From Anaerolineales bacterium (GTDB taxonomy: Bacteria; Chloroflexota; Anaerolineae; Anaerolineales; Villigracilaceae): a stretch of 64,000 nucleotides of DNA. Below the pieces are notes generated by a model. It saw only the letters and a program-made list of their open reading frames with translations, made no database searches and was not told the origin of the DNA. The position numbers and the translations under genes were made by a program. Shown piece after piece: positions 4,842 to 44,892 of the stretch (position 1 is its first letter; each line of letters starts with the position of its first letter). The stretch is taken from the NCBI GenBank assembly GCA_034411635.1, contig DAOUML010000134.1, positions 14,649 to 78,648 on the forward strand. The letters are read 5' to 3'.

Positions 4842-6191
4842 ATGGACTCGCGAATCCCCTTTTTGAACATTAAGCCAGAAGAGCGCGCGCAAGTTCTCTC
4901 GCTCATGCTCATTTTAGCCCTGGCAACCCTTGTCTTGGAATTAACCGACGTGATCGCAACAGGTGGATTTGTTAGCAAAGTCGGCCCGGATAATATTGTT
5001 CTGCTTTGGATAGCAGATATGGTCATCATTATTTTCACGGCCGGCATTTATTCGATGGCCGTAGACCGCATGAATCGCGTGAAATTGCTCAAATGGCTTT
5101 CGCTTGGTTTTGCAATCGTTTTTCTTGGGATGCGATTCTTGTTTTTGGGCAATATCCCTGATTGGGTAACCTATCCTTTGCTATATATTCTCACCGACCA
5201 GTTTTACGCTATCTTTCCTCTGGCTTTTTGGGCGATGGTAAACGATTTTTACACATCCTCTGAAACCAGACGTTTGTTTCCCATTATCATCATGGGCGCT
5301 ACGCTGGGAAGCATCTCTGGCAATGGCCTGGCGGCTTTCTCTGGCTGGTTTTTACAGCGGACGGGCGGCAGCCCGCATTCCTTGTTGATTGTTGGCGCAA
5401 TTTTATTGTTTATTACGCTTTTGCTGCTTCAATTTGGGCTGCCTAAACGCACCGTTAATGTGCGTCAATCACGCGATACCGGCCTGGATGTTGCCCAGAC
5501 GGTTAAAGTTGGCTGGGACTATATCAAAAATGTGCCTATTTTTACCTTCCTTGCGGTTGCGATGGTCCTTTCAGGCTTAGCCTTTACCATCATCGAGTAT
5601 CATTTCATTTTTGCAGTTGACCGGGCCGCCGCTCAAAATCCGCTCCAATTTCAGGCGGTTTATGGCACCTTTAAGATTGTCTTGATTATCAGCATACTTG
5701 GCGCGCAGGCTTTTATTTCAGGGCGTTTGTTGGAAAGAATCGGCCTCAAAAATTCCTTTATCTTTCAGCCGATTGCGCTGGTCTTGGGCGGCCTTATGGC
5801 GGCAGGCGTTCCGGGGTTATTGGGGGCTTCGGCCGCCAAATACCTTACGCGCCTGACCCAACAGGCCTGGGATGAGCCGGCGCGTAAAGCCTTGCAAAAC
5901 CTTGTTCCCGATGAGCGGCGCGGACGCGTTGCTGTAATGATTGACCGCTATTTTTACGATTTTTCGACCATTTTTGGTTCAGTCATTCTTGGCTTGCTGC
6001 TCATTTTGCGCCACTTTTCTATTATTTCTCCGGCGCAAATTATCAATATTTATCTTGGCTTGGCAATTTCGGCATCTCTCGTTGCTGTTATGGCTGCTTT
6101 AAGATTACGCGCTACTTATGAGAAAAGCCTGCTCGATTGGCGGCTTTCTCGTTCGCGCCGAAAAAGTGCTTTGGATGGAATTGAATTTTGA
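4842..6191 (+). CDS. TLC/Npt-like (ATP:ADP antiporter family-like) MFS-type permease
   Basis: 449 aa with about 11-12 hydrophobic spans. FWAMVNDFYTSSETRRLFPIIIMGATLGSISG resembles the FW.fan....eakR.yp...g..lG...g signature of nucleotide-transporter (TLC) family proteins. The substrate cannot be inferred. Confidence 0.55.
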   Translation: MDSRIPFLNIKPEERAQVLSLMLILALATLVLELTDVIATGGFVSKVGPDNIVLLWIADMVIIIFTAGIYSMAVDRMNRVKLLKWLSLGFAIVFLGMRFLFLGNIPDWVTYPLLYILTDQFYAIFPLAFWAMVNDFYTSSETRRLFPIIIMGATLGSISGNGLAAFSGWFLQRTGGSPHSLLIVGAILLFITLLLLQFGLPKRTVNVRQSRDTGLDVAQTVKVGWDYIKNVPIFTFLAVAMVLSGLAFTIIEYHFIFAVDRAAAQNPLQFQAVYGTFKIVLIISILGAQAFISGRLLERIGLKNSFIFQPIALVLGGLMAAGVPGLLGASAAKYLTRLTQQAWDEPARKALQNLVPDERRGRVAVMIDRYFYDFSTIFGSVILGLLLILRHFSIISPAQIINIYLGLAISASLVAVMAALRLRATYEKSLLDWRLSRSRRKSALDGIEF

Positions 6192-11773: not shown

Positions 11774-14700
11774 TTAGTATCCTGTGCTGGAAACATCACT
11801 GGAAGGCCGCCACTGTGACCACTTGTCACTTGCAGGGTCAATGGTCATGTTGCTGGCGAAGCCGCCCTGCCAGAAGACCTGGAAGATGTTGGCATCGCCA
11901 TCGCGCATGGAGGTGAAGGCCAGATTGGTGCCGCCACAGTCCCAGGTTGGGCCGGAGTCGACGCCCTCGTAGTCGGTGACGCGGTATTCAGTGTCATCGC
12001 GCAGGTCGTAGGAGTACAGGTCGAGGTTGCCGTCGCGTTCCGACTGGTAGGCGATACGGTCCCCTTCGGGTGACCAGACTGCGTTGATGGTCTTGCCATC
12101 GGTGGTGATGCGCTTCAGATTCTGGCCGTCGATATCGACAATGAACAGGTCGGTGCCGCCGTCTACATCAGATATGAAGGCGATTTGCTTGCCATTGGGT
12201 GACCAGGCCGGGAAGGTTTCATTGGCCGGTGAGTCGGTCAGCTGGATTTCATTACCGGTTTCGGTGTCGAGGATGAAGACGTCCCAGTTGCCGTTGCGGT
12301 TGCTCTGGAAGACCAGCCAGCGCAATTCGGGCGAATAGAAGCCATTGATGTCATCTGCCGGGTTGCTGGTGATCTGACGTTCTTCGCGCGTGACCTGGTC
12401 GATGGTGAAGAGGTCGAAGTTACCGTTTCGGTCACTCTGGAAGACGATGGTGCGTTCGTCTGGGCCGTACATCGGGGTGGTGTTATTCGCCTGGGTGTTG
12501 GTAAGGCGAACAGGTTCACCGGCTCCATCAAGGCCTGTGTAGTAAATTTCCACGTTGCCATCGCGGTTGCTGTTGAAGGCGACCCAGATATCGTTGGGAG
12601 AGCGGCTTGGGCGGCTATCGGCGGCGGTGCTGCGCGAAAGGTTGTACAGGACATGATCTGGGTCAGTTTCGACACCATCCAGGCGGTAGATTTCCAGATA
12701 ACCATCGCGGAAGGTATGGAAGACCAGGGTTTGAATACAGATGTTCTCGCCAGTTTGGATAGCCGAGACTGGAGGCAGAGGGGTGGGCGTTGGGGCATCC
12801 GGCGTGTCGCAGACCACCTTGAACGAGGAGGAACTGTTGTTGCCCAGATAAGTGACCGTAACGGTGTACTCGCCATTGGTCTGTTTGCCGATGTTTTCTG
12901 TCAGCGGCAGTTGAGTGTCAGCGGGGTATTCCCGGTTGAAGATCTGGTTGCCCTGAGCGGTGGTGACGATGACGCGGATTTTATCGCTCAGTGGCCCGCC
13001 GCTGTTATCGACGGTGAAGGAAATTTCTCCTTGCGGGGTGCATAGTCCGTTGGCCTGGATGCTGGGCGGGATGACCGTTGGCGTGGGCGTTGGGGTTGGG
13101 GCCAGGCACTCTACTTCAGTGGACGACGAAGTTTCTTGCAGCATGTAGGAGACAACGATTTCATATTCGCCGGGGGTTTGCTGCCCAATATCAACGGTGA
13201 GCGGCAGGGAGGTGTTCTGGTCGTAATCTTCATTGAAGACTTCGTTACCCTGACTGTTGTAGACCGTTACGCTGAAATCGCCTTGCAACGGGCCGCCATT
13301 ATTGCTGACGGTGAAGATGACCGTATTCTTGCCAACCGGACACTGCCCGGCAACGCTCAAATCAGGCGGAACGGGGGTGTTGGTCGGGGTTGGGGTTGGG
13401 GCCAGGCACTCCACTTCAAAGGAAGATGAAGTTTCCATCGGCATGTAGAAGACCTCGATTTCATATTCGCCGGGGGCTTGCTGTCCAATATCAACGGTGA
13501 GCGGCAGGGAGGTGTTCTGGTCGTAATCTTCACTGAAGACTTCATTGCCCTGGTTGTTGTAAACCGTTACACGGAAGTCACCTTGCAACGGGCCGCCGTT
13601 ATTGCTGACGGTGAAGATGACCGTATTCTTGCCAACCGGACATTGCCCGCCAACGCTCAAATCAGGCGGAACGGGGGTATTGGTCGGGGTGTTGGTTGGC
13701 GTGAAAGTAGGTGTAAAGGTGGGGGTGAAAGTTGGGGTGAAAGTTGGTGTATTGGTCGGCGTGTTGGTTGAGGTGCTGGTTGGGGTAGCCGTTGGCAGGT
13801 TGCAGGTTACATCGTCGCGGATGGGGCCTTGTGCACTGGCAGGGTGTCCGGCTGGCCGATCAACTTCCATCATTACTTTCTGGCCGGGGTAGGGGCCGAA
13901 TTCAAAGGTCTGGCTTTGCTTTCCGGCGAGTTGCAGGGAGCCGCTTTCGGTCAGGACGCCATCGACGTACATGCGCCACTCGACCGAGTTACGCATATCG
14001 CCTTCGCCCGCGTCGCCGGTGTTGGTGACGGTGAAGGATGCTTTGCCCAGTGCAAGGCATTGTCCATTGATATCCAGGCTTGATCGGTCCCAAACGTCAG
14101 TGGCGGTTGGGGTAATGGTCGGTGTGTTGGTGGGGGTATGAGTTGGCGTAAAGGTAGGAGTATTGGTAGGCGTACTGGTTGGGCGCTGGGAGCAGAATCC
14201 GGTTACGCTCAGGTTGACCGATGACAGGAAACTGGTTCGGTAGGTTACGTTCATGGTTGCATAGCCTGCGCCATTAACGCGTAACTCTTCTCCCGGTCCC
14301 AGATTGGCGCTGCCAGACTTGGCGGGGTCTGAAAGACTGTATGACCCATCGCTCACCGTGCCTGAGACATTGGTGATGACGAAGGTGGCCGAAAGGTCAT
14401 TGTTGCAGAATACTTGCAGGTCAAGTTGGCCATCCAGAACGGTTTCTGTGGGGGTCAATGTGGGCGTATGGGTTGGTGTATTGGTTGCCGAAGGCGTAAA
14501 GGTAGAAGTTGGGGTAAAGGTGGCGGTGTGGGTTGGCGTGATGGTCGGCGTCATCGACGGGGTAAATGTTTGCGATGGCGTAAAGGTTAGCGAAGGCGTG
14601 AAGGTTAATGTCTTTGTCGGAGTTTGGGTGCGGGTAAATGTTTGCGTGCGCGTTGGGGTTTGGGTGCGTGTATTTGTTGGCGTGCGCGTAGCCGTTGGCG

Positions 14701-16027
14701 GTTTGGGGGTGCGCGTGTTTGTAGGCGTGCGCGTCATGGTTGGGGTGCGTGTATTTGTAGGGGTATTCGTGATCGTAGGCGTGTTTGTAATGGTGGGTGT
14801 ATTCGTGATGGTCGGTGTGTTCGTAATGGTAGGCGTGTTGGAAGGTGTGAAAGTAAGAGAGGCGGTCGGCGTATTGGATGGGGTGAATGTGTTTGAAGGG
14901 GTGAAGGTTGGGGTGCGTGTTTTGGTTGGGGTACGGGTATTGGTTGGGGTGCGGGTGTTGGTTGGGGTGCGGGTAGCCGTGTGAGTTGCCGTTGGAACAG
15001 GCGTATTGGTGAATGTGGCTGTAGGCAGGGGCAAGCAAGTTCCCGTTGCGCCCAAATTGACATTGTCTAATTGCGATGTTGCATACACAACTGTTATGGA
15101 AGCATTACCAGCCACATTGAAAGAAATCCGCTCGCCAGGTCCGAGTCTGAATGTGCCGCTCTGATCTGGTTTTCCGGGTTCGCTGATGGTGTATTCGCCG
15201 TCTTCGAGCATGGGGCCGCCCGCGTTAGTAATGCGGAAGGTGGCTGAAAGATCGTTATTACAGAGTACGCTTAAGCCGAGATAAGGATCATTGACCGGCG
15301 TTGCGGTTTCAGTAGCAGTTGGCGGGATTGGGGTGTTGGTGGGCGTGAAAGTAGGGGTGAAAGTAGGGGTAGTTGTTTGCGTAAATGTTGGGGTAATGGT
15401 GGCGGTGTTTACGGGTGTGTTGGTAGGCGGAGGCGGGGTGTTGGTGGGCGGGTCGCCTAATTTAAACTCAACATGTGAAATTTCTTTACAAGTGCTTCCG
15501 CTGCCGACGCGGTCAACCCCGGCTCTATTGGTACCGATACCTGAGACAGAATAACAACCGTCATTAACGTTTCCGTCATAGTAAAAATGAGATGTGCCGG
15601 ACTTAATAATAACAGCAAGAATAATTTTTCCGGAAGGCGCATCATAATTGTAAGATTCGGCTCCATAGTCAAGTTTATCATCGCCATCAGGATGATTTCC
15701 TCCCAGCCCAGTAATAACCGTAGCAGCCGGGACGGGGGTCTCTGTGGGGGTGGCGGTAGGAACCGGCGTTTGCGTGGGTTCTTCGGTTGCTTCGGGGGTG
15801 GATGTTGGCTCTTCCGTCGCTTCGGCAGTTGGCTCTTCCGTTGCTTCGGCGGTTGGCTCTTCCGTTGCTTCGGCGGTTGGCTCTTCGGTCGGCTCTTCCG
15901 TCGCTTCTATAGCCGCGCCTCCCAGTCCTCCATCAGGAAGCGGACCACATGCAGAAAAGAGCATTGCAAAGATAACAAAGATTGAAAAAATATTGAAAAG
16001 GTGTTTTGTTGGGTTTTGGGTACTCAT
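11774..16027 (-). CDS. Giant modular surface protein or lipoprotein: E/P/T repeats, Cys-bracketed beta-sandwich-like modules joined by Thr/Pro linkers, and a C-terminal TolB-like (PD40) beta-propeller
   Basis: 1417 aa. The signal peptide ends in FSAC. EATEEPT repeats follow, then a unique roughly 85-aa module. Seven modules each begin and end with Cys: two CNNDLSATF-type, one INGQC-type, and four of a QCPVGKNTVIFTVSNNGGPLQGD type. Long PTxT linkers join them. The C-terminus has repeated PD40-like units (SPxxxxIAFxSxRDGNxEIY). Confidence 0.8.
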   Translation of the reverse strand: MSTQNPTKHLFNIFSIFVIFAMLFSACGPLPDGGLGGAAIEATEEPTEEPTAEATEEPTAEATEEPTAEATEEPTSTPEATEEPTQTPVPTATPTETPVPAATVITGLGGNHPDGDDKLDYGAESYNYDAPSGKIILAVIIKSGTSHFYYDGNVNDGCYSVSGIGTNRAGVDRVGSGSTCKEISHVEFKLGDPPTNTPPPPTNTPVNTATITPTFTQTTTPTFTPTFTPTNTPIPPTATETATPVNDPYLGLSVLCNNDLSATFRITNAGGPMLEDGEYTISEPGKPDQSGTFRLGPGERISFNVAGNASITVVYATSQLDNVNLGATGTCLPLPTATFTNTPVPTATHTATRTPTNTRTPTNTRTPTKTRTPTFTPSNTFTPSNTPTASLTFTPSNTPTITNTPTITNTPTITNTPTITNTPTNTRTPTMTRTPTNTRTPKPPTATRTPTNTRTQTPTRTQTFTRTQTPTKTLTFTPSLTFTPSQTFTPSMTPTITPTHTATFTPTSTFTPSATNTPTHTPTLTPTETVLDGQLDLQVFCNNDLSATFVITNVSGTVSDGSYSLSDPAKSGSANLGPGEELRVNGAGYATMNVTYRTSFLSSVNLSVTGFCSQRPTSTPTNTPTFTPTHTPTNTPTITPTATDVWDRSSLDINGQCLALGKASFTVTNTGDAGEGDMRNSVEWRMYVDGVLTESGSLQLAGKQSQTFEFGPYPGQKVMMEVDRPAGHPASAQGPIRDDVTCNLPTATPTSTSTNTPTNTPTFTPTFTPTFTPTFTPTNTPTNTPVPPDLSVGGQCPVGKNTVIFTVSNNGGPLQGDFRVTVYNNQGNEVFSEDYDQNTSLPLTVDIGQQAPGEYEIEVFYMPMETSSSFEVECLAPTPTPTNTPVPPDLSVAGQCPVGKNTVIFTVSNNGGPLQGDFSVTVYNSQGNEVFNEDYDQNTSLPLTVDIGQQTPGEYEIVVSYMLQETSSSTEVECLAPTPTPTPTVIPPSIQANGLCTPQGEISFTVDNSGGPLSDKIRVIVTTAQGNQIFNREYPADTQLPLTENIGKQTNGEYTVTVTYLGNNSSSSFKVVCDTPDAPTPTPLPPVSAIQTGENICIQTLVFHTFRDGYLEIYRLDGVETDPDHVLYNLSRSTAADSRPSRSPNDIWVAFNSNRDGNVEIYYTGLDGAGEPVRLTNTQANNTTPMYGPDERTIVFQSDRNGNFDLFTIDQVTREERQITSNPADDINGFYSPELRWLVFQSNRNGNWDVFILDTETGNEIQLTDSPANETFPAWSPNGKQIAFISDVDGGTDLFIVDIDGQNLKRITTDGKTINAVWSPEGDRIAYQSERDGNLDLYSYDLRDDTEYRVTDYEGVDSGPTWDCGGTNLAFTSMRDGDANIFQVFWQGGFASNMTIDPASDKWSQWRPSSDVSSTGY
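13099..13698. repeat. Tandem 2 x 300-bp near-identical repeat inside the giant gene
   Basis: ggccaggcact starts at both 13099 and 13399. The two copies align along their full length with scattered substitutions. They encode 100-aa modules that differ at about 10 residues. Confidence 0.9.
14444..15034. repeat. Low-complexity coding repeat (Thr/Pro linker, residues about 332-528 of the giant protein)
   Basis: The region encodes reiterated PTNTRT, PTITNT, TFTPS and RTQT units. The DNA is a mosaic of degenerate 9-18-nt repeats. Confidence 0.85.
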
Positions 16028-36872: not shown

Positions 36873-39098
36873 TTACCCGGCTTTAATGCGTTGGGCTTCA
36901 AAGACGTTGCTCAGGTTTTCCATGCGGTTGAGGACGCGTGAGAGTTGAATCAGGTCGCGCACCTCAACCACCAGCCGGATGCTGGCAATATCGGCCCGCA
37001 GCGAGTCGTGTTCAACGTTTACGCTTACATCGGTAATGTTTACCCCTTCGGCGGTAAGCAGGTTTGAGATGTCGTTCATCAGGCCCTGGCGGTCGAAGGC
37101 TGTAATGCGGATGGGCGTTGGGTAGGTTTTGGTGGTATCGCCCCAACTGACGCGCACCAGCCGCTCTTTTTCGCTGGTAGAGCAGCGCAGAATGTTGGGG
37201 CAATCTTCGCGGTGGATGGTTGCGCCGCGTCCGCGTGTGATGTAGCCGACGATTGGGTCGCCGGGGGCAGGGTTGCAGCATCTTGCCATTTGGGTAAGCA
37301 ACCCGCGCAACCCACGCACAGCGACGGCATCACTGGAGGTGGTTTCGCTCTTGGGCGCGGCGGTTTCAATAACGTCTTCGGTTGGTTTTTCGTCTGAAAT
37401 CAGGGTGACAATGCGGTTGAGCGACAGGTCGCCGCAGCCGAGGGCCACGAACATTTCTTCGGGTTGGCGGTATTCGAGTTTGCGGGCCAGGTTTTCAAAG
37501 TTGATTTCTTCCAACCCCAGGCGGCGGAATTCGCGTTCGAGAATTTGGCGTCCCTGGCCCAGGTTTTGGTCGCGGGCTTGTTTTTTGAGCCAGGCGCGAA
37601 TTTTTGCCCGCGCGCGCTGGGTTTTTACCAGCCCAACGCTTGGGTTGAGCCAATCGCGGCTGGGGCCGCCTTGTTTGGTGGTGAGAATGACCACCCTGTC
37701 GCCGGTTTTCAGGATGTAGTTGAGCGGTTCGAGTTTGCCGTTGATTTTTGCGCCCCGGCAGCGATGGCCGACGTCGGTGTGGACGTGGTAGGCAAAGTCG
37801 ATAGGGGTGGAGCCTTTGGGCAGGTCGATAATGTCGCCTTTGGGGGTGAAGACGTAGACATGTTCATCGAAGACATCGTTTTTCATGGTTTCGACAAATT
37901 CGTCGGCGTTCATGTCTTCGTTTTTGGTATCAATCTGGCTGCGCAGGGCGGTCAGGAAGGTTTCGTATTGTTCGTCGCGCTTTTTGCTGGCTTCTTTGTA
38001 TCGCCAGTGGGCGGCAATACCGCGCTCGGCGTTTTGGTGCATTTCCTGGGTGCGAATTTGCACTTCGAGCGGTTTGTTGTCTTCGTACATGACTGCGGTA
38101 TGCAGCGATTGGTACATGTTTTCTTTGGGGGCGGCAATGTAATCGTCGAATTCGCCGGGGATGGGCCGCCAATGGCTGTGGATGATGCCCAGCGAAGCGT
38201 AACAATCGCCGGGGTTTTCTACCAACAGTCGCACGCCGCGCACATCCATAATCTGGTCGAAGGTTTTTTCTTTGTTAACCATCTTTTTGTAGATGGAGTA
38301 GATGTGTTTGGGCCGGCCGCTTACTTCGGCTTTAATGCCGTTTTCGGCCAGAATCTGCTCAATGCGCTTTTTGATTTTTTCAACCTGTAAATTGCGGGTT
38401 GCGCGGCGCTCGTTCAGGCCGGAGGCGATTTCTTTGTATTTTTCTGGCTCAAGGTAATACAGGGATAGATCTTCCAGTTCCCACTTAATTTCGGCAATGC
38501 CCAGCCGGTTTGCAATTGGGGCGTAGATTTCGAGGGTTTCGCGGGCGATGCGGCGTTGTTTGTCGGGCCGGGTATAGGCAAGGGTGCGCATGTTGTGCAG
38601 GCGGTCAGCCAGTTTGATGAGGATGACGCGCACATCTTTGTTCATGGCCAGCATGGTTTTGCGCAATGTTTCTTTGGCGAGTAGTTTTTTGCGTTTTGAA
38701 ATTTGTTCTTCGGTTAATTGGATTTCGTCTTCTTGATGGGTTTCATGTTCGCTGCGAGAGACGCGCGGCAGGGCTTTGAGTTTTGTAACCCCATCGACCA
38801 GCGAAGCGGTGCTGGTGCTGAATTTTTCTCGAATTTCTTGCAGGCTAATGCTGGTGTCTTCAACGACATCGTGCAAAAGGCCGGCGGCTATGGCATCGGG
38901 GTGCATTTGCAGGTCTGAAAGGATGGCGGCAACGGCGATACAGTGATTGATGTATGGCTCGCCTGATGCGCGTCTTTGCGGTTCGTGGGCTTTGGCTGCC
39001 AATTGGTAGGCGCGTTGAACAAACTCACGATCTTCATCTGAGAAGTGTTTGGGCAGTGACGCCATTAATTCTTCGATGCCAATGGCTTCTTGTTTCAT
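36873..39098 (-). CDS. relA/spoT: Bifunctional (p)ppGpp synthetase/hydrolase, RelA/SpoT family
   Basis: 741 aa. The HD hydrolase motif is GLLHDVVEDT. The synthetase motifs are RPKHIYSIYKKM, DVRGVRLLV and YQSLHTAV. TGS and C-terminal ACT-like regions are present. Confidence 0.9.
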   Translation of the reverse strand: MKQEAIGIEELMASLPKHFSDEDREFVQRAYQLAAKAHEPQRRASGEPYINHCIAVAAILSDLQMHPDAIAAGLLHDVVEDTSISLQEIREKFSTSTASLVDGVTKLKALPRVSRSEHETHQEDEIQLTEEQISKRKKLLAKETLRKTMLAMNKDVRVILIKLADRLHNMRTLAYTRPDKQRRIARETLEIYAPIANRLGIAEIKWELEDLSLYYLEPEKYKEIASGLNERRATRNLQVEKIKKRIEQILAENGIKAEVSGRPKHIYSIYKKMVNKEKTFDQIMDVRGVRLLVENPGDCYASLGIIHSHWRPIPGEFDDYIAAPKENMYQSLHTAVMYEDNKPLEVQIRTQEMHQNAERGIAAHWRYKEASKKRDEQYETFLTALRSQIDTKNEDMNADEFVETMKNDVFDEHVYVFTPKGDIIDLPKGSTPIDFAYHVHTDVGHRCRGAKINGKLEPLNYILKTGDRVVILTTKQGGPSRDWLNPSVGLVKTQRARAKIRAWLKKQARDQNLGQGRQILEREFRRLGLEEINFENLARKLEYRQPEEMFVALGCGDLSLNRIVTLISDEKPTEDVIETAAPKSETTSSDAVAVRGLRGLLTQMARCCNPAPGDPIVGYITRGRGATIHREDCPNILRCSTSEKERLVRVSWGDTTKTYPTPIRITAFDRQGLMNDISNLLTAEGVNITDVSVNVEHDSLRADIASIRLVVEVRDLIQLSRVLNRMENLSNVFEAQRIKAG

Positions 39099-39107
39099 GG
39101 TCGTCTT

Positions 39108-39135
39108 ATTGTAGTCAATTAGTCTGAAATGTCAA
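39108..39135 (-). promoter_or_regulatory. Near-consensus sigma70-type promoter (TTGACA-N16-TACAAT) for relA/spoT; predicts a leaderless mRNA
   Basis: The minus strand reads cTTGACAtttcagactaattgacTACAATaagacgaccATG. Only 9 nt separate the -10 hexamer from the ATG. Confidence 0.5.
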
Positions 39136-39156
39136 AGGCGAATAAGCGCGGGCAGG

Positions 39157-40341
39157 TTATGCGCGTTGTTCTTGCTGCCTGGTTACATCGCTGGGCAGGT
39201 GCATCAGGTCAATGGTTGGGTCATCGCAGAAGAGCATGGCGCGTTCGATGGCATTGCGCAATTCGCGCACGTTGCCGGGCCAATGATAAGCACGCAGGGC
39301 TTCTACGGCGCGCGGGGTGATGTCGGTGATGTTGAGACCCATGCGGGCGTTGTTCTGGCGCACAAACAGGCCGGCCAGTTCGAGGATATCGCCTTTGCGC
39401 AAACGCAGCGGCGGAATGTGCAAATCGACCACTTTCAGGCGGTAATACAAATCTTCGCGGAAGAAACCTTCTTCGATCATTCGCGCCAGCGGACGGTTGG
39501 AGGCCGCCAACACCTGCACATCGACCTTGATCAGGTTGGTGCCGCCCACCCGTCGAAAGGCGCGTTCCTCCAGCACGCGCAACAGTTTGGCCTGGGTATC
39601 GATGGGCATGGAGGCGATTTCATCCAGAAAGAGAATGCCGTTATCGGCCACTTCGAGCAGGCCGGGTTTGCGCTTATCGGCTCCGGTAAAGGCCCCGGCT
39701 TCGTACCCGAACAATTCTGATTCAATCATCGTTGGTTGGATGGCGGCGCAGTTAATGGCGATGAAGGGCTTGTCGGCGCGTGAGCCGTTATCGTGGATGT
39801 AATGCGCCAGAACTTCTTTGCCGCTGCCGGTTTCACCCGTCACCAGCACCGAAACGCCTGTTCCGGCGGCCCGGCGGGCCTGGGCCAGCAAGGTTTGCAT
39901 TTCGGGGCTGGAGCCGACCACAATATCTTGTCCGTGTCGCTGGGCGCGGCGTAAATGCGCCAGTTCGCGCCGCATGGCGACCACTTCGACAGCCCGTTTG
40001 AGCGACTCTTCCAGCCGGGCCAGTTGAATTGGCTTTTGCAGAAAATCATGCGCGCCGTTTTTCATGGCATCGACGGCCATGTCGATATCGCCGTAGGCCG
40101 TAATTAGCAAAATTGGCGGCGGCGGCGAAAGGCGGGCGGTTTCTTCGAGCAGGCTGGGGCCGTAGCCATCCGGCAGTTGCACATCCAACAAGATGACTTC
40201 GGCCACCCCGCGCCCAACGTGTTCGCGCGCTTCGGCCAGGGTGGATGCGCCAATGACCTCGTACCCGCGCGAGGTGAGAAACTGTGAGAGAATCAGGCGG
40301 GCATTTTCTTCGTCGTCTACGACCAGTACGGTTGCGCTCAT
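39157..40341 (-). CDS. Sigma54-dependent response regulator (REC + AAA+) lacking a C-terminal DNA-binding domain
   Basis: 394 aa. The REC domain has VLVVDDEEN..LLDVQLPDG, Walker A is GETGSGKE and the GAFTGA loop is YEAGAFTGA. LFLDEI and WPGNVRELRN are present. The protein ends about 30 residues after that motif, with no Fis-type HTH. Confidence 0.85.
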   Translation of the reverse strand: MSATVLVVDDEENARLILSQFLTSRGYEVIGASTLAEAREHVGRGVAEVILLDVQLPDGYGPSLLEETARLSPPPPILLITAYGDIDMAVDAMKNGAHDFLQKPIQLARLEESLKRAVEVVAMRRELAHLRRAQRHGQDIVVGSSPEMQTLLAQARRAAGTGVSVLVTGETGSGKEVLAHYIHDNGSRADKPFIAINCAAIQPTMIESELFGYEAGAFTGADKRKPGLLEVADNGILFLDEIASMPIDTQAKLLRVLEERAFRRVGGTNLIKVDVQVLAASNRPLARMIEEGFFREDLYYRLKVVDLHIPPLRLRKGDILELAGLFVRQNNARMGLNITDITPRAVEALRAYHWPGNVRELRNAIERAMLFCDDPTIDLMHLPSDVTRQQEQRA

Positions 40342-40344
40342 GGG

Positions 40345-42312
40345 TTACTCCTCTTCTTTGTTTGCGCCCGGAAGCCGCACCGTGAAAATGGTGCCGCCAG
40401 GGAAACTTTCAACATCAATTTTGCCCTTATGGGCCAGGATAATGCGTTTGCTGATGGACAGCCCCAGCCCCGTGCCTTGCGGGCTGGTGGTAAAGAACGG
40501 CTCGAACACTTTTTCGCGCACTTCGGGCGGAATTCCTGGCCCGGTATCCGAAATTGAGATATGAACCCAGGGTTTGCCCCCTGCTTCGCCTGTCGCTTCA
40601 ATGCGGACCGCCAGCGTGCCGCCTGGCTGGTCTTTCATGGCGTTGATGGCGTTGCTTAATAAGTTGGTAAACACCTGATCAAGGGCGCGTCCGTCGGCCA
40701 GGGCCGGCGGAATGTTCTCTTCCACGTTATAAACCAGATTGATTCCCAGGCGCGTCATGCGCGGGTGCCAGCGCTCCAGCAATTGCTTCAGCAGGCGGTT
40801 CAGGCTGAGGGGCGCGATTTTGTATTCCATCGGTTTGGCAAAGGCCAGCACCGATTCCATTAAATGGGTCAGGCGGTTGCAATCGCCTTGCAAGCGGGCC
40901 ACCAACTCGCGGTTGGTGTCGTTTTCGGGCAGGTTCATCTCCATGAGTTGCAGGCCGGTTGAAATGTTGTTTACCGGGTTGCGCACTTCATGGGCAAAAA
41001 TGGCGGTAATTTCACCCAGCAGGGCGCGCTGCTCCAGTTGCTGGGTGCGGGCCCGAATTTGCTCGCTTTCGCTCATATCGCGAATGAGCAAGACGATGTT
41101 GCTCAACTCTTCACCCGTTCGCACGGGGAAAACCTGCAAATGAGCCGGAAAAACCTGCCCTGAGCGGCGATGTAATTTGCCATGCCCCAAGTTGGGCGAG
41201 GTTAGGCCATTGATGGCCATGCGCAGGGCAGCGGGCAGGTTTTCCATGCCAATCAGAATATTCTCGATGCGTTCGCCATGCACTTCCCGGCCGGCGTAGC
41301 CGAGCATCATTTCGGCAGCGGGGTTCATGTCTAAGACGCGCATGGCCGGGCTGAGCAGGATGATTCCATCCAGAATATTCTCGGTGATTGCATCTCGAAT
41401 GGCGATGGCGCGCATGGCTTCGAGGCTGGCGCGGTGTCGGTTGCTGCGGTTGGCATAGTAACTGAGGGCAACGGTAATATGCGCGGCCAGGTTTTCAAGC
41501 ATATCGACCAGCAGGCGGCTATCGCGTAGGGGCAGGTTGAAGGCAACCAGCAGCCCCTGGCGCTCGCTTTCCATTTTGATTGGCACTGAAACCAGCGATT
41601 CCAAATCCAGGCTGCGGGCCGATTGTTGAATTTGGGTGATGGCGCGCTGGCCGGTTGTCCACATGGAGGGGGTATAAGTCAGTTGCGATTCGCCAAATTC
41701 GAGCGATTCGGGCAGGGCCTGGGCATCTTTGCCCTGGCAGGTTACGCGCGCCAATTGCCGGTTTTTGGAATCGAGGCGGTAAATGCACAATCCTTGCGCG
41801 CCAAGCAAGGATTGTCCTAATTCAAGGGCCAGGCGCAGGGCCTCCTCCAGTGTGTTTTTTTGGGTGAGTTGGGCCAGTTGCTCGCTGATGTGAATCATTT
41901 CGCGGACCTGGGCGTTTTGCTGTTCTCTCCAGCGTTTAACTTCGCTTGGAATTAGCCGTACCACCAGCCATTGCCCGGCCCGATCAAGCCAGGTCACTTT
42001 GGCCCACATCGATAGCGCGCGCTTGTTTGGAATGTGAACATCAACTTCTAACTCTTCGCCCGAAGACCAGCCCTCGCCAAAGGCTGGCAGCAGGGTGGCG
42101 ATTTGCATCGGCGCAGGGTCGAGCGGGAAGAGGCCGGTGAGTTGGTAAAAACCTTTGTTGGCGAAGGCGACCAATCCATTGGGGCGATCCAGCACAATGG
42201 TGGCATCGTCGATGTTGTTGAGCAGGGTGGCAATTTCGTTCGCGCCGGGTAATTCGCCGCGCCAAATGGGTTGGGCGTTGAGGTTTTGGGTGGTAAATGG
42301 GCCTGTGCTCAT
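40345..42312 (-). CDS. Cytoplasmic PAS / GAF / PAS sensor histidine kinase
   Basis: 655 aa with no TM span. The H-box is FAHEVRNPVNNI, the N-box is LLSNAINAM, and the G-boxes are ISDTGPGI and GTGLGLSI. Confidence 0.85.
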   Translation of the reverse strand: MSTGPFTTQNLNAQPIWRGELPGANEIATLLNNIDDATIVLDRPNGLVAFANKGFYQLTGLFPLDPAPMQIATLLPAFGEGWSSGEELEVDVHIPNKRALSMWAKVTWLDRAGQWLVVRLIPSEVKRWREQQNAQVREMIHISEQLAQLTQKNTLEEALRLALELGQSLLGAQGLCIYRLDSKNRQLARVTCQGKDAQALPESLEFGESQLTYTPSMWTTGQRAITQIQQSARSLDLESLVSVPIKMESERQGLLVAFNLPLRDSRLLVDMLENLAAHITVALSYYANRSNRHRASLEAMRAIAIRDAITENILDGIILLSPAMRVLDMNPAAEMMLGYAGREVHGERIENILIGMENLPAALRMAINGLTSPNLGHGKLHRRSGQVFPAHLQVFPVRTGEELSNIVLLIRDMSESEQIRARTQQLEQRALLGEITAIFAHEVRNPVNNISTGLQLMEMNLPENDTNRELVARLQGDCNRLTHLMESVLAFAKPMEYKIAPLSLNRLLKQLLERWHPRMTRLGINLVYNVEENIPPALADGRALDQVFTNLLSNAINAMKDQPGGTLAVRIEATGEAGGKPWVHISISDTGPGIPPEVREKVFEPFFTTSPQGTGLGLSISKRIILAHKGKIDVESFPGGTIFTVRLPGANKEEE

Positions 42313-43715
42313 GGCTGCCTCTGGGCGCGCTGCTGGGCGCGTTCTTGTGAGTTGGGAATGCCTTCCATCAGACGGTATTTGGTGACCGCCCGGCGCGAGA
42401 GTTCAAATCCTTGCTGGTTGAGTTGTTCGGTGAGGGCCTGGTCGCTGAGCGGCGTGGGTTCTGCGGCGATCAGGGTTTTTAGCGCGGCGCGGGCGCTCAG
42501 GTTGCGCTCGAAAAAACGTGAGAGCGGCACAATGTGTCCATCAGGCAATTGTACCTGTTTGCCAGAAACTGCCCGCGAAATGGTCGATTCATGGAAGCCC
42601 AGGTCTTCGGCCAGTTTGGCGCGGGTGATGGGCTGCAATTGTTGGCTGCCTTGTTTGATGAATTCGCGTTGCAGACCGGCCAGGCGCGCCATGAGCATTT
42701 CGAGCGCGGTTTGGCGCTGACGCAAACTTTTGATGAGCAGGCGCCCGCGCGCGATGGCTTCGCTAAAGCCGCCGCTTTCATCTTCGGCGCGGGCTTGTTT
42801 GAAGAACGGGTTCAGGCGCAGCCTTCCGGCAAAGGGCAGGGCCAGTTCGACAATGAGCGTGGCCTGGGCTGAATCGTGCCAGCGCAGGAGAATATCGGGG
42901 GTACGGTAGACAGGTATCGGGTCGCTTGTTCCGGCCTGGTTGCCCCACCAGGCGCGGGCCGGGTAGGGGTTCAGGTTCGCGCCAATAAAACGGGACGATG
43001 TCTCAATTTGTTCCACCGTAAATCCGCTTTTTTGGGCGATTTGGGAAAGATTGCGGTGGGCGAGCAGGTCAAAATGTTCGAGGCAGGCGCGCGCGGCGGG
43101 CGGAACTTCTTCGGTTTGTTGGAGAATGTCGAGTTGGGCGGATAGGGCCTCACGCGCCGAGGTGGATGCGCACCCCAGCGGGTCGCCGTGCTGGATGAGT
43201 TGGCGGACGCGCTCGACCCGCTGCCTGGGGATGTGAAAATAGGCCGCTACCTCCGCCGGGTCGATGGTCAGCAGGCCGTCGTCGTCGAGGGCGGTGAGCA
43301 AGTGGGCGGCGATGGGGCGCTCGTCTGGTTCGAGTTCGGGGGCAATTTGACGCAGCAGGTGGGCGGCCAGGCTGAGATTTTCTGCGGCTTCGGGGGCTTC
43401 GGGGTTTTCGTAGGTTTCGCGCCTTCGGCTGGGGCTGGCGGGCGTGAAATCGGCCCCGGGGCTGGTGAAGACGATGGTTTGGGCGTTGGGGCGCGCGGCG
43501 CATAGTGGGCAGGGGCCGGGTTGAATGGTTTTTTTGCCACAGGCCGGGCAGCGTGGGGCGCGGGCCAGTTCGAGGGCGGGGTTTTCAGAGAGTTCGCGCT
43601 CGATGGTCTGGCGCAGTTCGTCGCTCGTCAGGTGTAGCAGGTTCATGGTCTGCGTCAGGCTGGCGGTGGTTTGCGGGTGTTGGGTGCTGATTGGGCGTTG
43701 AATTTGCTGAAACAT
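42309..43715 (-). CDS. rpoN: RNA polymerase sigma-54 factor with a CxxC-N12-CxxC insert after region I
   Basis: 468 aa. Region I reads LTQTMNLLHLTSDELRQTIERELSENPALE. The C-terminal HTH is KLAEDLGFHESTISRAV and the RpoN box is SRRAVTKYR. It has an ATGA overlap with the kinase gene. Confidence 0.85.
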   Translation of the reverse strand: MFQQIQRPISTQHPQTTASLTQTMNLLHLTSDELRQTIERELSENPALELARAPRCPACGKKTIQPGPCPLCAARPNAQTIVFTSPGADFTPASPSRRRETYENPEAPEAAENLSLAAHLLRQIAPELEPDERPIAAHLLTALDDDGLLTIDPAEVAAYFHIPRQRVERVRQLIQHGDPLGCASTSAREALSAQLDILQQTEEVPPAARACLEHFDLLAHRNLSQIAQKSGFTVEQIETSSRFIGANLNPYPARAWWGNQAGTSDPIPVYRTPDILLRWHDSAQATLIVELALPFAGRLRLNPFFKQARAEDESGGFSEAIARGRLLIKSLRQRQTALEMLMARLAGLQREFIKQGSQQLQPITRAKLAEDLGFHESTISRAVSGKQVQLPDGHIVPLSRFFERNLSARAALKTLIAAEPTPLSDQALTEQLNQQGFELSRRAVTKYRLMEGIPNSQERAQQRAQRQP

Positions 43716-43758
43716 CGTGTAGTCAATCCTTTTTTATTGTATCACTTTGTGGTAAGGA

Positions 43759-43776
43759 TTGCAAGTTTTGTGCCAA
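43759..43776 (-). promoter_or_regulatory. Sigma54 -24/-12 promoter (TTGGCAC-N5-TTGCAA) upstream of rpoN
   Basis: The minus strand reads TTGGCACAAAACTTGCAA, an exact match to TGGCAC-N5-TTGC(A/T). The GC of the -12 element is at 43762-43761 and the rpoN ATG is at 43715, so the leader is about 34 nt and contains AAGGA. Confidence 0.6.
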
Positions 43777-43781
43777 TATGT

Positions 43782-43887
43782 CAGCAATTCTCAATATGGA
43801 AGTGAGCCAGACTGTTTTGAATGCGTAGCGCCGCCTTTGCGCAGCACTTCGCAGGCGGCGCTACATGGGGCGTATTGAGAATTGCTG
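43782..43887. repeat. Nested two-tier palindrome (106 nt)
   Basis: The outer arms are a perfect 15 bp: cagcaattctcaata (43782-43796) and tattgagaattgctg (43873-43887). The inner arms are a perfect 12 bp: gtagcgccgcct (43825-43836) and aggcggcgctac (43853-43864). Confidence 0.8.
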
Positions 43888-43940
43888 CCAATGTGTTTAG
43901 CGTTTAAGGTTGAATGTTTAAGGGTTGGGGGATTAAGCGC

Positions 43941-43979
43941 AAAAAGGGCTATCCAGGCTGCTGCCGGATAGCCCTTTTT
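43941..43979. terminator. Bidirectional terminator
   Basis: aaaaagggctatcc pairs with ggatagcccttttt (14-bp arms including the A and T runs). It lies just downstream of the CoA-transferase gene. Confidence 0.65.
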
Positions 43980-43989
43980 GCGGACTTTG

Positions 43990-44892
43990 CTAATATTTGC
44001 CGTAGTTGATGGCTTCGCTCATCAGGGCTGGCACGGCCAGTTGTTGGTGTTTTTCTGGGCCGAGTTTTTGCCAGTATTCTTCGCGGTTCACTACGCCAAA
44101 AACCCATTCATCGAGATAGGCCTGGGTAAGGGCCGGGTCAGCGGAGATTTTGTCCCATTCGAGGTAGAACTCGTTGTCGCGATCATAGTAACCCTGGGCA
44201 TAACTGGGATGGGCGGCATACGGAACGTGGCAAACCGCGCTGACGATGAAGCCGGGAATCATCGTCCGGTTCGGGTCGGAGCGGATGACGCTTTCGGCGA
44301 CGATTTCTTCGGCGGTTAGAATGACTTTCTTCGCGGCGAAGGCCACTTCCTTTTGTTCGCCGACGATGCCCCACAGGTGGGCGTTGCCATTTTCATCGGC
44401 GCGCTGAACGTGAACGATGGCGACATCTGGGTTTAGGGCTGGCACGGTGATGACTTCGCGTCCGCTGTAGGGGTCGGTGACGCGTTTGATGTTGGGGTTG
44501 GCGGCTTCGAGCGAGGTTGCGCCGGTCTGGTTCATGGGCAGGAAGGGCAATCCGCTGGCCCCGGCTTGTAGACGGGTGATCATGCCGAAGTGGGAGTATT
44601 CTTCCCATTCGAGTTGGCCTTGCTCGATGGCTTTGCGCACAATGCGCAGCGAGCCGACTCCGGGGTTGCCCATATAAGAGAAGATGACTTTTTTGGCGCA
44701 TCCGGCGGCGACCAGTTGGTCATAAATCAGATCGGGGGTGGCGCGGGCCAGGGTCAGGTCGCGTTTGCCCTGGCGGATGATTTCGTGCCCGGCGGCGAAG
44801 GGAATCAGGTGGGTGAATCCGGCGGCGTACAGGCTGTCGCCATCCTGAACGTGGGTGGCGATGGCTTCTTGCAGGGAGGTGAGTTTGCTCAT
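43990..44892 (-). CDS. CoA-transferase subunit A (glutaconate / 3-oxoacid CoA-transferase family)
   Basis: The start is at MSKLTSLQEAI (ATG 44892). It has DGDSLYAAGF and the SYMGNPGVGS-type glycine loop. No subunit B gene is adjacent. The track's 63-codon extension is rejected. Confidence 0.7.
   Translation of the reverse strand: MSKLTSLQEAIATHVQDGDSLYAAGFTHLIPFAAGHEIIRQGKRDLTLARATPDLIYDQLVAAGCAKKVIFSYMGNPGVGSLRIVRKAIEQGQLEWEEYSHFGMITRLQAGASGLPFLPMNQTGATSLEAANPNIKRVTDPYSGREVITVPALNPDVAIVHVQRADENGNAHLWGIVGEQKEVAFAAKKVILTAEEIVAESVIRSDPNRTMIPGFIVSAVCHVPYAAHPSYAQGYYDRDNEFYLEWDKISADPALTQAYLDEWVFGVVNREEYWQKLGPEKHQQLAVPALMSEAINYGKY

Follow-up and report, generated by a model that had tools for sequence, protein, structure and literature searches.

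The rpoN cassette

The locus described here lies in a 64,000-nucleotide (nt) stretch of DNA from an Anaerolineales bacterium (contig DAOUML010000134.1), to which we refer as the window throughout. Three densely packed open reading frames (ORFs) on its minus strand encode a sigma-54 factor (rpoN, 42309–43715, 468 amino acids (aa)), a cytoplasmic sensor histidine kinase with GAF and PAS domains (40345–42312, 655 aa) and a sigma-54 activator, or bacterial enhancer-binding protein (bEBP), consisting of a receiver (REC) and an AAA+ domain (39157–40341, 394 aa). The start codon of the kinase gene lies over the stop codon of rpoN in an ATGA overlap (CAGCCATGAGC), and 3 nt separate the kinase gene from the activator gene (TAAcccATG). 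A compact module of these three genes, joined by just this overlap and this gap, had been proposed from the sequence (in the following, the original prediction), and the ORFs, the junction sequences and the Pfam domains all agree with it. A three-gene operon is thus supported, in which rpoN, a soluble GAF/PAS kinase and an activator without a DNA-binding domain form one compact unit.

In RpoN, Region I, the core-binding and the DNA-binding domains are all present (Pfam Sigma54_AID, 6e-8; Sigma54_CBD, 8e-29; Sigma54_DBD, 1e-30), and the RpoN box reads RRAVTKYR. The score against the NCBIfam model TIGR02395, 242 bits, stays under the equivalog cutoff of 277 bits, therefore the protein is a divergent member of the sigma-54 family. 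The kinase is composed of an N-terminal region followed by GAF, PAS, HisKA (H-box FAHEVRNP) and HATPase_c domains. No transmembrane segment was found in it, the maximum hydropathy over 19 residues being 1.27.

The activator holds the Pfam domains Response_reg (9e-25), Sigma54_activat (2e-68) and AAA_lid_14, with the receiver aspartate in the context LLDVQLPDG, a Walker A motif GETGSGKE, a GAFTGA loop and a Walker B motif LFLDEI. Neither HTH_8 nor any other domain was detected C-terminal of the AAA lid, where the domain match ends at residue 393 of 394, and the NtrC and AtoC profiles align only up to position ~390 of their 461–463 positions. Consequently the C-terminal DNA-binding part is absent, as had been claimed. 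REC plus AAA+ without a Fis-type DNA-binding domain are the sequence characters of type Ic bEBPs such as CtcC and FlgR. In the window and across ~260 kb of related loci (L001–L016 and L088–L091; L numbers denote individual loci) only one AAA+ activator domain was found, with no paralogue close by. An assignment of the kinase/activator pair as orthologues of NtrBC, AtoSC or ZraSR was rejected, since all scores were far below the NCBIfam equivalog cutoffs. For the kinase these were 245 bits against AtoS (cutoff 646) and 119 against NtrB (cutoff 240), for the activator 375 against AtoC (cutoff 714) and 374 against NtrC (cutoff 559), i.e. the proteins are related, below orthologue level.

A conserved sigma-54-type promoter upstream of rpoN

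Upstream of rpoN, and in the same orientation, lies a predicted sigma-54 -24/-12 promoter element, TTGGCACAAAACTTGCAA (43759–43776, minus strand; GG at 43774–43773, GC at 43762–43761, predicted start ~43749). In its core motif, TGGCACAAAACTTGCA at 43775–43760, the first T is located 60 nt and the last A 44 nt before the rpoN ATG, and the GG-to-GC spacing is canonical. The original prediction had described an exact match 44 nt upstream of the ATG with correct spacing, unique among the intergenic regions. The match was found as described, and its uniqueness reaches further, as it is the sole occurrence of TGGCAC-N5-TTGCW on either strand of the whole window. By chance 0.11 matches are expected per window, and 11 of 100 shuffled sequences had one; scaled to the 274-nt gap upstream of rpoN and the correct strand, this expectation becomes roughly 2e-4 by our own arithmetic. 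A relaxed motif with up to two mismatches was not enriched across the window (81 observed versus 94 expected). Matches with one mismatch were set aside; those looked at fall within ORFs.

The best matches to RpoN come from metagenome-assembled genomes of Anaerolineales/Chloroflexota. A search of genome contigs with a single protein query yielded three close loci, and a search of metagenome contigs returned, among the matches listed, mostly other phyla, whose rpoN loci serve as controls. The window and all 14 relatives with a contig reaching past rpoN (L001–L009, L011, L012, L015, L088 and L090) share the order rpoN-kinase-activator, at RpoN identities from 77% to about 40%, where measured. Their activators have 387–397 aa, the same domain set, no helix-turn-helix domain and the same position, while the genes flanking the cassette vary. 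In ~70 loci of other lineages (L017–L087, among the matches listed) neither a kinase nor an activator gene was seen directly downstream of rpoN, many of these contigs ending soon after it.

The promoter motif follows the same distribution. The strict form TGGCA[CT]-N5-TTGCA is situated 48–111 nt before the rpoN ATG (48–62 nt in most cases) in 15 out of 17 loci of the clade, versus none within 150 nt of rpoN in 59 control loci of other lineages (among the matches listed, each with 228 nt or more of sequence upstream; Fisher p = 5e-14, loci taken as independent). Among 13 distinct rpoN promoter sequences T at position 1, G at positions 2 and 3, A at position 5 and the TTGCAA are invariant, whereas the five spacer positions vary. 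In the three closest relatives (L001–L003) the element of the window is 100% conserved and its flanks diverge; between subclades the remaining intergenic DNA upstream of rpoN cannot be aligned. This pattern supports evolutionary conservation, under selection, of a predicted sigma-54-type promoter of rpoN.

Two loci, L011 (4924 and 4941) and L012 (621 and 638), possess two tandem motifs 17 nt apart upstream of rpoN, TGGTAY-N5-TTGCA and then TGGCAY-N5-TTGCA, the first -12 box abutting the second -24 box. Outside the Anaerolineae, the GC-rich loci L024 and L025 (rpoN about 28% identical) have a TGGCAY-N5-TTGCT 207–245 nt upstream of an rpoN gene that carries the cysteines described below; in L025 a TAGAAT comes immediately after it, and upstream an activator gene is encoded on the opposite strand. 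Judging by these two, self-recognised rpoN promoters may be in wider use.

The same motif at a glycosidase-like gene and at ftsZ

In the related loci the motif search found the same consensus also upstream of a gene which we call T1 (six out of six loci) and of the next gene, ftsZ (five out of five). The predicted sites are located at 5901 and 7299 in L088, 5948 and 7350 in L089, 5959 and 7083 in L090, 5954 and 7329 in L091, 9625 and 10881 in L015, and 12459 in L007. The ftsZ assignment is based on 369 bits against TIGR00065 (cutoff 295 bits). In L007, L015, L088 and L090 the T1-ftsZ cluster adjoins the rpoN cassette; it continues with ORFs of ~80 aa and then, in three of the four loci examined, a tetratricopeptide repeat (TPR) protein of 1500–1900 aa. 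In four loci the motif proximal to ftsZ lies inside the last codons of T1, where the encoded residues vary (DGT, DGI or DGM; LA, FA or IA) and the DNA motif is kept. It is likewise kept in L015, although there it is outside the shorter T1 gene. Since the residues change while the motif stays, the pattern points to selection on the DNA. From the presence of the consensus at both genes it follows that the sigma-54 of this clade very probably recognises the canonical -24/-12 consensus.

T1 is a protein specific to Anaerolineales, and sequence searches of Pfam, NCBIfam and the PDB gave nothing for its family. Its structure model (predicted local distance difference test (pLDDT) score 83) has a weak fold match to TIM barrels of the glycoside-hydrolase type, the best one being PslG at a TM score of about 0.45, which weakly suggests a glycosidase-like protein. 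No homologue of T1 or ftsZ was detected in the window by tblastn. Taken from the relatives, the T1 and ftsZ sites plausibly give the cassette a credible output, and they suggest sigma-54 control of cell division in Anaerolineae.

A further sigma-54 motif was noticed in L012 (5228–5243), 16 nt past the activator stop codon and followed by a gene for a predicted membrane protein of 111 aa without a family match.

A predicted overlapping sigma-A promoter

The rpoN promoter of the window differs from these other sites in a second feature. A consensus scan predicted a sigma-70/sigma-A promoter, TTGCAA-17-TACAAT (43736–43764, minus strand; predicted start ~43729), with nine out of twelve consensus positions and an extended -10 TG at -15/-14. 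The TTGCAA is thus the -12 box of the sigma-54 element and the -35 box of the sigma-70-type promoter at once. Within about 25 nt downstream of the motif a TA[TC]AAT is present at 14 of 16 rpoN promoters versus none of 12 other motif sites (Fisher p = 6e-6), against a background of 1.5% in random 35-nt windows. The box follows TTGCAA after 16–18 nt, the canonical sigma-70 spacing, in seven loci (the window, L001–L003, L011, L012 and L014), and after 4–5 nt in L006–L009 and L013, where instead xTGGCA stands at -35 spacing. That the sigma-54 motif is fixed while the sigma-A register shifts is hard to explain unless both promoters are used and their overlap is intended.

Transcription from upstream is an improbable source of basal rpoN expression. 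The CoA-transferase gene upstream ends in a predicted intrinsic terminator (43938–43982, minus strand), a hairpin of -35.7 kcal/mol (z = -7.1) followed by a U run, and in L001–L003 GC-rich inverted repeats with T runs, read by eye, occupy its place, a few nt from the -24 box. With such a strong terminator upstream the rpoN operon needs a promoter of its own. In addition, an enhancer would find hardly any space upstream, in keeping with an activator that lacks a DNA-binding domain. The original prediction had required either a basal promoter or read-through to start the circuit. As to the former, a candidate is present and overlaps the sigma-54 site; the latter appears unlikely in view of the terminator.

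A proposed composite promoter and its alternatives

The reading that we favour, with a probability of roughly 60%, is that the three-gene operon is driven by a composite promoter, a sigma-54 -24/-12 site and a sigma-A -35/-10 promoter being superimposed on one stretch of DNA. In a first step, sigma-A holoenzyme would provide a basal level of sigma-54, kinase and activator from the predicted promoter. In a second, sigma-54 holoenzyme would form a stable closed complex on its own promoter; as the -35 box of the sigma-A promoter, or both its -35 and its -10 box, would also be part of the sigma-54 site, sigma-A holoenzyme would be shut out and expression capped as long as the activator is inactive. 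This occlusion step is derived from the geometry and from the precedent of glmY. In a third step, by analogy with FlgR and CtcC, the kinase would sense a cytoplasmic signal and phosphorylate the activator. Without a DNA-binding domain the latter would act from solution on any sigma-54 closed complex, that of its own promoter included, so that the operon would amplify itself and other sigma-54 promoters would fire; in relatives these would be the promoters of the glycosidase-like gene T1 and of ftsZ beside the cassette. Positive feedback on rpoN, as put forward in the original prediction, we likewise infer from the conserved sigma-54-type promoter on the operon. It would not be a purely positive loop, since the overlap with the sigma-A promoter predicts competition and negative autoregulation while the activator is off.

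Several points weigh against the composite promoter. All promoters are predictions from sequence, and the real driver could be another activator or a second sigma-54. The loci are phylogenetically related, hence the Fisher p-values overstate their independence. Individual loci deviate: L010 has no sigma-54 motif and only a TTGCCA-17-TATACT, L015 carries TGGTAT and no clear -10 box, L004 and L005 have a TATAAT 12 nt after TTGCAA and no good -35 box, and the -10 box of L090 is weak (TAGACT). In the window itself the sigma-A start, ~7 nt past TACAAT, falls in the AGGA ribosome-binding site, so a transcript starting there might be badly translated.

Alternatively, the -24/-12 site could be an operator only, at which sigma-54 holoenzyme blocks sigma-A and is never productively activated, resulting in purely negative autoregulation. 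The overlap with a sigma-A promoter is indeed specific to the rpoN promoters; at glmY, a sigma-70 promoter that overlaps the sigma-54 site is repressed by sigma-54 (PMC3045617), and R. leguminosarum offers a documented case of an rpoN gene under negative autoregulation (cited in PMC3538637). Yet the rpoN site is as near to the consensus as the presumed targets, and in most loci it is correctly oriented and 48–62 nt before the ATG. Moreover, no means is known by which an activator lacking a DNA-binding domain could pass over one particular closed complex, so this explanation requires an extra mechanism, whereas for an activator co-transcribed with rpoN the activation of its own promoter is the simplest outcome. 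We therefore consider a mere operator unlikely.

The purely positive loop of the original prediction deserves little credence. On such a reading the sigma-54 promoter alone would work, TATAAT would be an AT-rich aid to melting, and read-through or a distant promoter would supply the basal expression. In its favour, TATAAT in L006–L009 and L013 lies around positions -5 to +1 relative to the predicted sigma-54 start, a place where DNA that melts readily could be of use. But such a box is missing from all 12 other motif sites, in the seven loci with canonical sigma-70 spacing it is far past the region melted by sigma-54, and the strong terminator in the window, together with the corresponding hairpins and T runs read by eye in L001–L003, stands directly upstream. 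That the 16-mer is no sigma-54 site and resembles one by chance, being instead a sigma-A promoter with a pair of -35-like boxes or a binding site for a different regulator, can hardly be upheld: TTGGCA and TTGCAA both resemble TTGACA, but the two halves are invariant and always exactly 5 nt apart, irrespective of the shifting -10 register, the same bipartite motif precedes T1 and ftsZ beside the cassette without a -10 box, and upstream of rpoN it occurs, among the matches listed, only in the clade carrying the cassette.

Going beyond the composite promoter, the cassette might constitute the sole, enhancer-independent sigma-54 circuit of the Anaerolineae. It would be a two-state switch that caps itself in the off state and amplifies itself in the on state, with ftsZ and the glycosidase-like gene as main output, and septation of these filamentous bacteria would be gated, via sigma-54, by a cytoplasmic GAF/PAS signal. 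We regard this extended picture as tentative and rather doubtful as a whole.

Further features of the locus

Directly after the activator follows relA/spoT (36873–39098, minus strand). It was considered as a fourth operon member and rejected, as it has its own near-consensus sigma-70-type promoter (TTGACA-16-TACAAT, 39108–39135, minus strand, 11 of 12 consensus positions) and adjoins the cassette only in the close clade of the window, L001–L003; therefore the unit consists of three genes. The predicted promoter ends 9 nt before the ATG, which implies a leaderless or nearly leaderless messenger RNA.

Between terminator and rpoN promoter a perfect 10-bp inverted repeat, TAGCGCCGCC-N18-GGCGGCGCTA (43826–43863, -29 kcal/mol), was observed. 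It has no T tract and is unique in the window, and the segment of ~130 nt holding it has no counterpart in L001–L003. An Rfam scan of 39000–44100 revealed no leader RNA family; a single sub-threshold match to a small nucleolar RNA was taken as chance. Elsewhere in the window a near-motif, TGGCTCTTCCGT[CT]GC, is present in three copies with 24-nt spacing (15806–15868, plus strand) within an ORF of 1417 aa (11774–16027, minus strand), which indicates a short tandem repeat in this large gene.

RpoN itself carries an insertion resembling a zinc ribbon, CxxC-x9-CxxC (residues 56–72, codons 43500–43550, minus strand), in sigma-54 Region II. It directly follows the NPALE motif, at the usual place of Region II. 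In an alignment of 26 RpoN sequences from Anaerolineae C56, C59, C69 and C72 are invariant in all of them, and the cysteines are also found in the more distant rpoN loci L016–L021 and L023–L025. AlphaFold2 models residues ~41–90 with two beta elements at a pLDDT of 79–88. To our knowledge, no zinc ribbon has been described in sigma-54. This lineage-specific mini-domain with four cysteines might give sigma-54 an additional, possibly redox or metal, input.

Significance and relation to known systems

Usually sigma-54 is treated as constitutively present, its output being set entirely by many enhancer-bound activators. If the composite promoter holds, a whole bacterial class has its sigma-54 gene under a dual-sigma promoter, together with the genes of a single sensor kinase and a single enhancer-independent activator. 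This wiring would represent a simple and testable switch design with a built-in ceiling and a built-in amplifier, and a natural case in which a sigma factor has to contend with sigma-A for the promoter of its own gene. Furthermore, the sigma-54-type promoters at ftsZ suggest a function in the control of cell division of filamentous, mostly uncultured and little-studied Chloroflexota, and such a compact, enhancer-free unit of three genes and one promoter could be a portable part for synthetic biology. We found no paper on sigma-54 or ftsZ regulation in Anaerolineae, and our literature search did not return a description of the combination of cassette and composite promoter. Every component belongs to a known family.

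That sigma-54 drives its own gene is less unusual than the original prediction had it. One computational survey predicted an enrichment of sigma-54-type promoters ahead of rpoN (COG1508) in Bacilli, Clostridia, Planctomycetia, Verrucomicrobiia and Proteobacteria; it mentions neither Chloroflexi nor Anaerolineae and reports neither a co-operonic kinase or activator nor overlapping sigma-70 promoters (PMC12316311). The prxS-rpoN2 operons of R. etli and M. loti also place rpoN behind a sigma-54- and activator-dependent promoter; they depend on NifA and need some activator-independent basal expression (PMC3538637). Unlike the activator of the cassette, alpha-proteobacterial NifA binds upstream enhancers and is encoded elsewhere. 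To start transcription, these operons usually depend on another rpoN copy or on a weak internal promoter, and their sigma-70 and sigma-54 promoters are not superimposed. The nifU2-rpoN operon of R. capsulatus is likewise NifA-dependent.

Co-transcription of a sigma-54 gene with its activator as a dedicated module also has a precedent, the rpoN2-vemR-fleQ operon of Xanthomonas, which combines it with a response regulator and the cognate activator for the flagellar regulon; the paper describes no sigma-54 autopromoter and, by its own account, did not address how the operon is expressed (PMC12271599). In contrast to the activator of the cassette, FleQ includes a DNA-binding domain; VemR consists of a receiver alone, no kinase is encoded in the operon and rpoN2 is a second copy.

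For the superimposed promoters the closest parallel is glmY, where sigma-54 partly represses a sigma-70 promoter and the activator turns on the sigma-54 one (PMC3045617). In both cases a sigma-70 -35/-10 pair is located on the same DNA as the -24/-12 element, mutual interference being a prediction for rpoN. The product of glmY, however, is a small RNA and not sigma-54, which leaves the sigma factor outside any feedback, and the activator of glmY, GlrR, binds upstream sites.

In the design of kinase and activator the cassette most resembles CtcB/CtcC of Chlamydia and FlgS/FlgR of Helicobacter and Campylobacter, each a soluble kinase with a REC-AAA+ activator without a DNA-binding domain. We know of no rpoN gene that shares an operon with the kinase/activator pair in Chlamydia or in Helicobacter and Campylobacter. 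CtcC and FlgR activate sigma-54 holoenzyme without an enhancer (PMC3162934, PMC7482065), and AtoC is the nearest named relative of the activator in the window as it is of CtcC (PMC7482065). Chlamydial rpoN transcript levels, in turn, are roughly constant (PMC7482065), and neither a sigma-54 promoter nor an overlapping sigma-70 promoter has been described on rpoN in these systems, whereas in the Anaerolineae all three genes would stand behind one self-recognised composite promoter.

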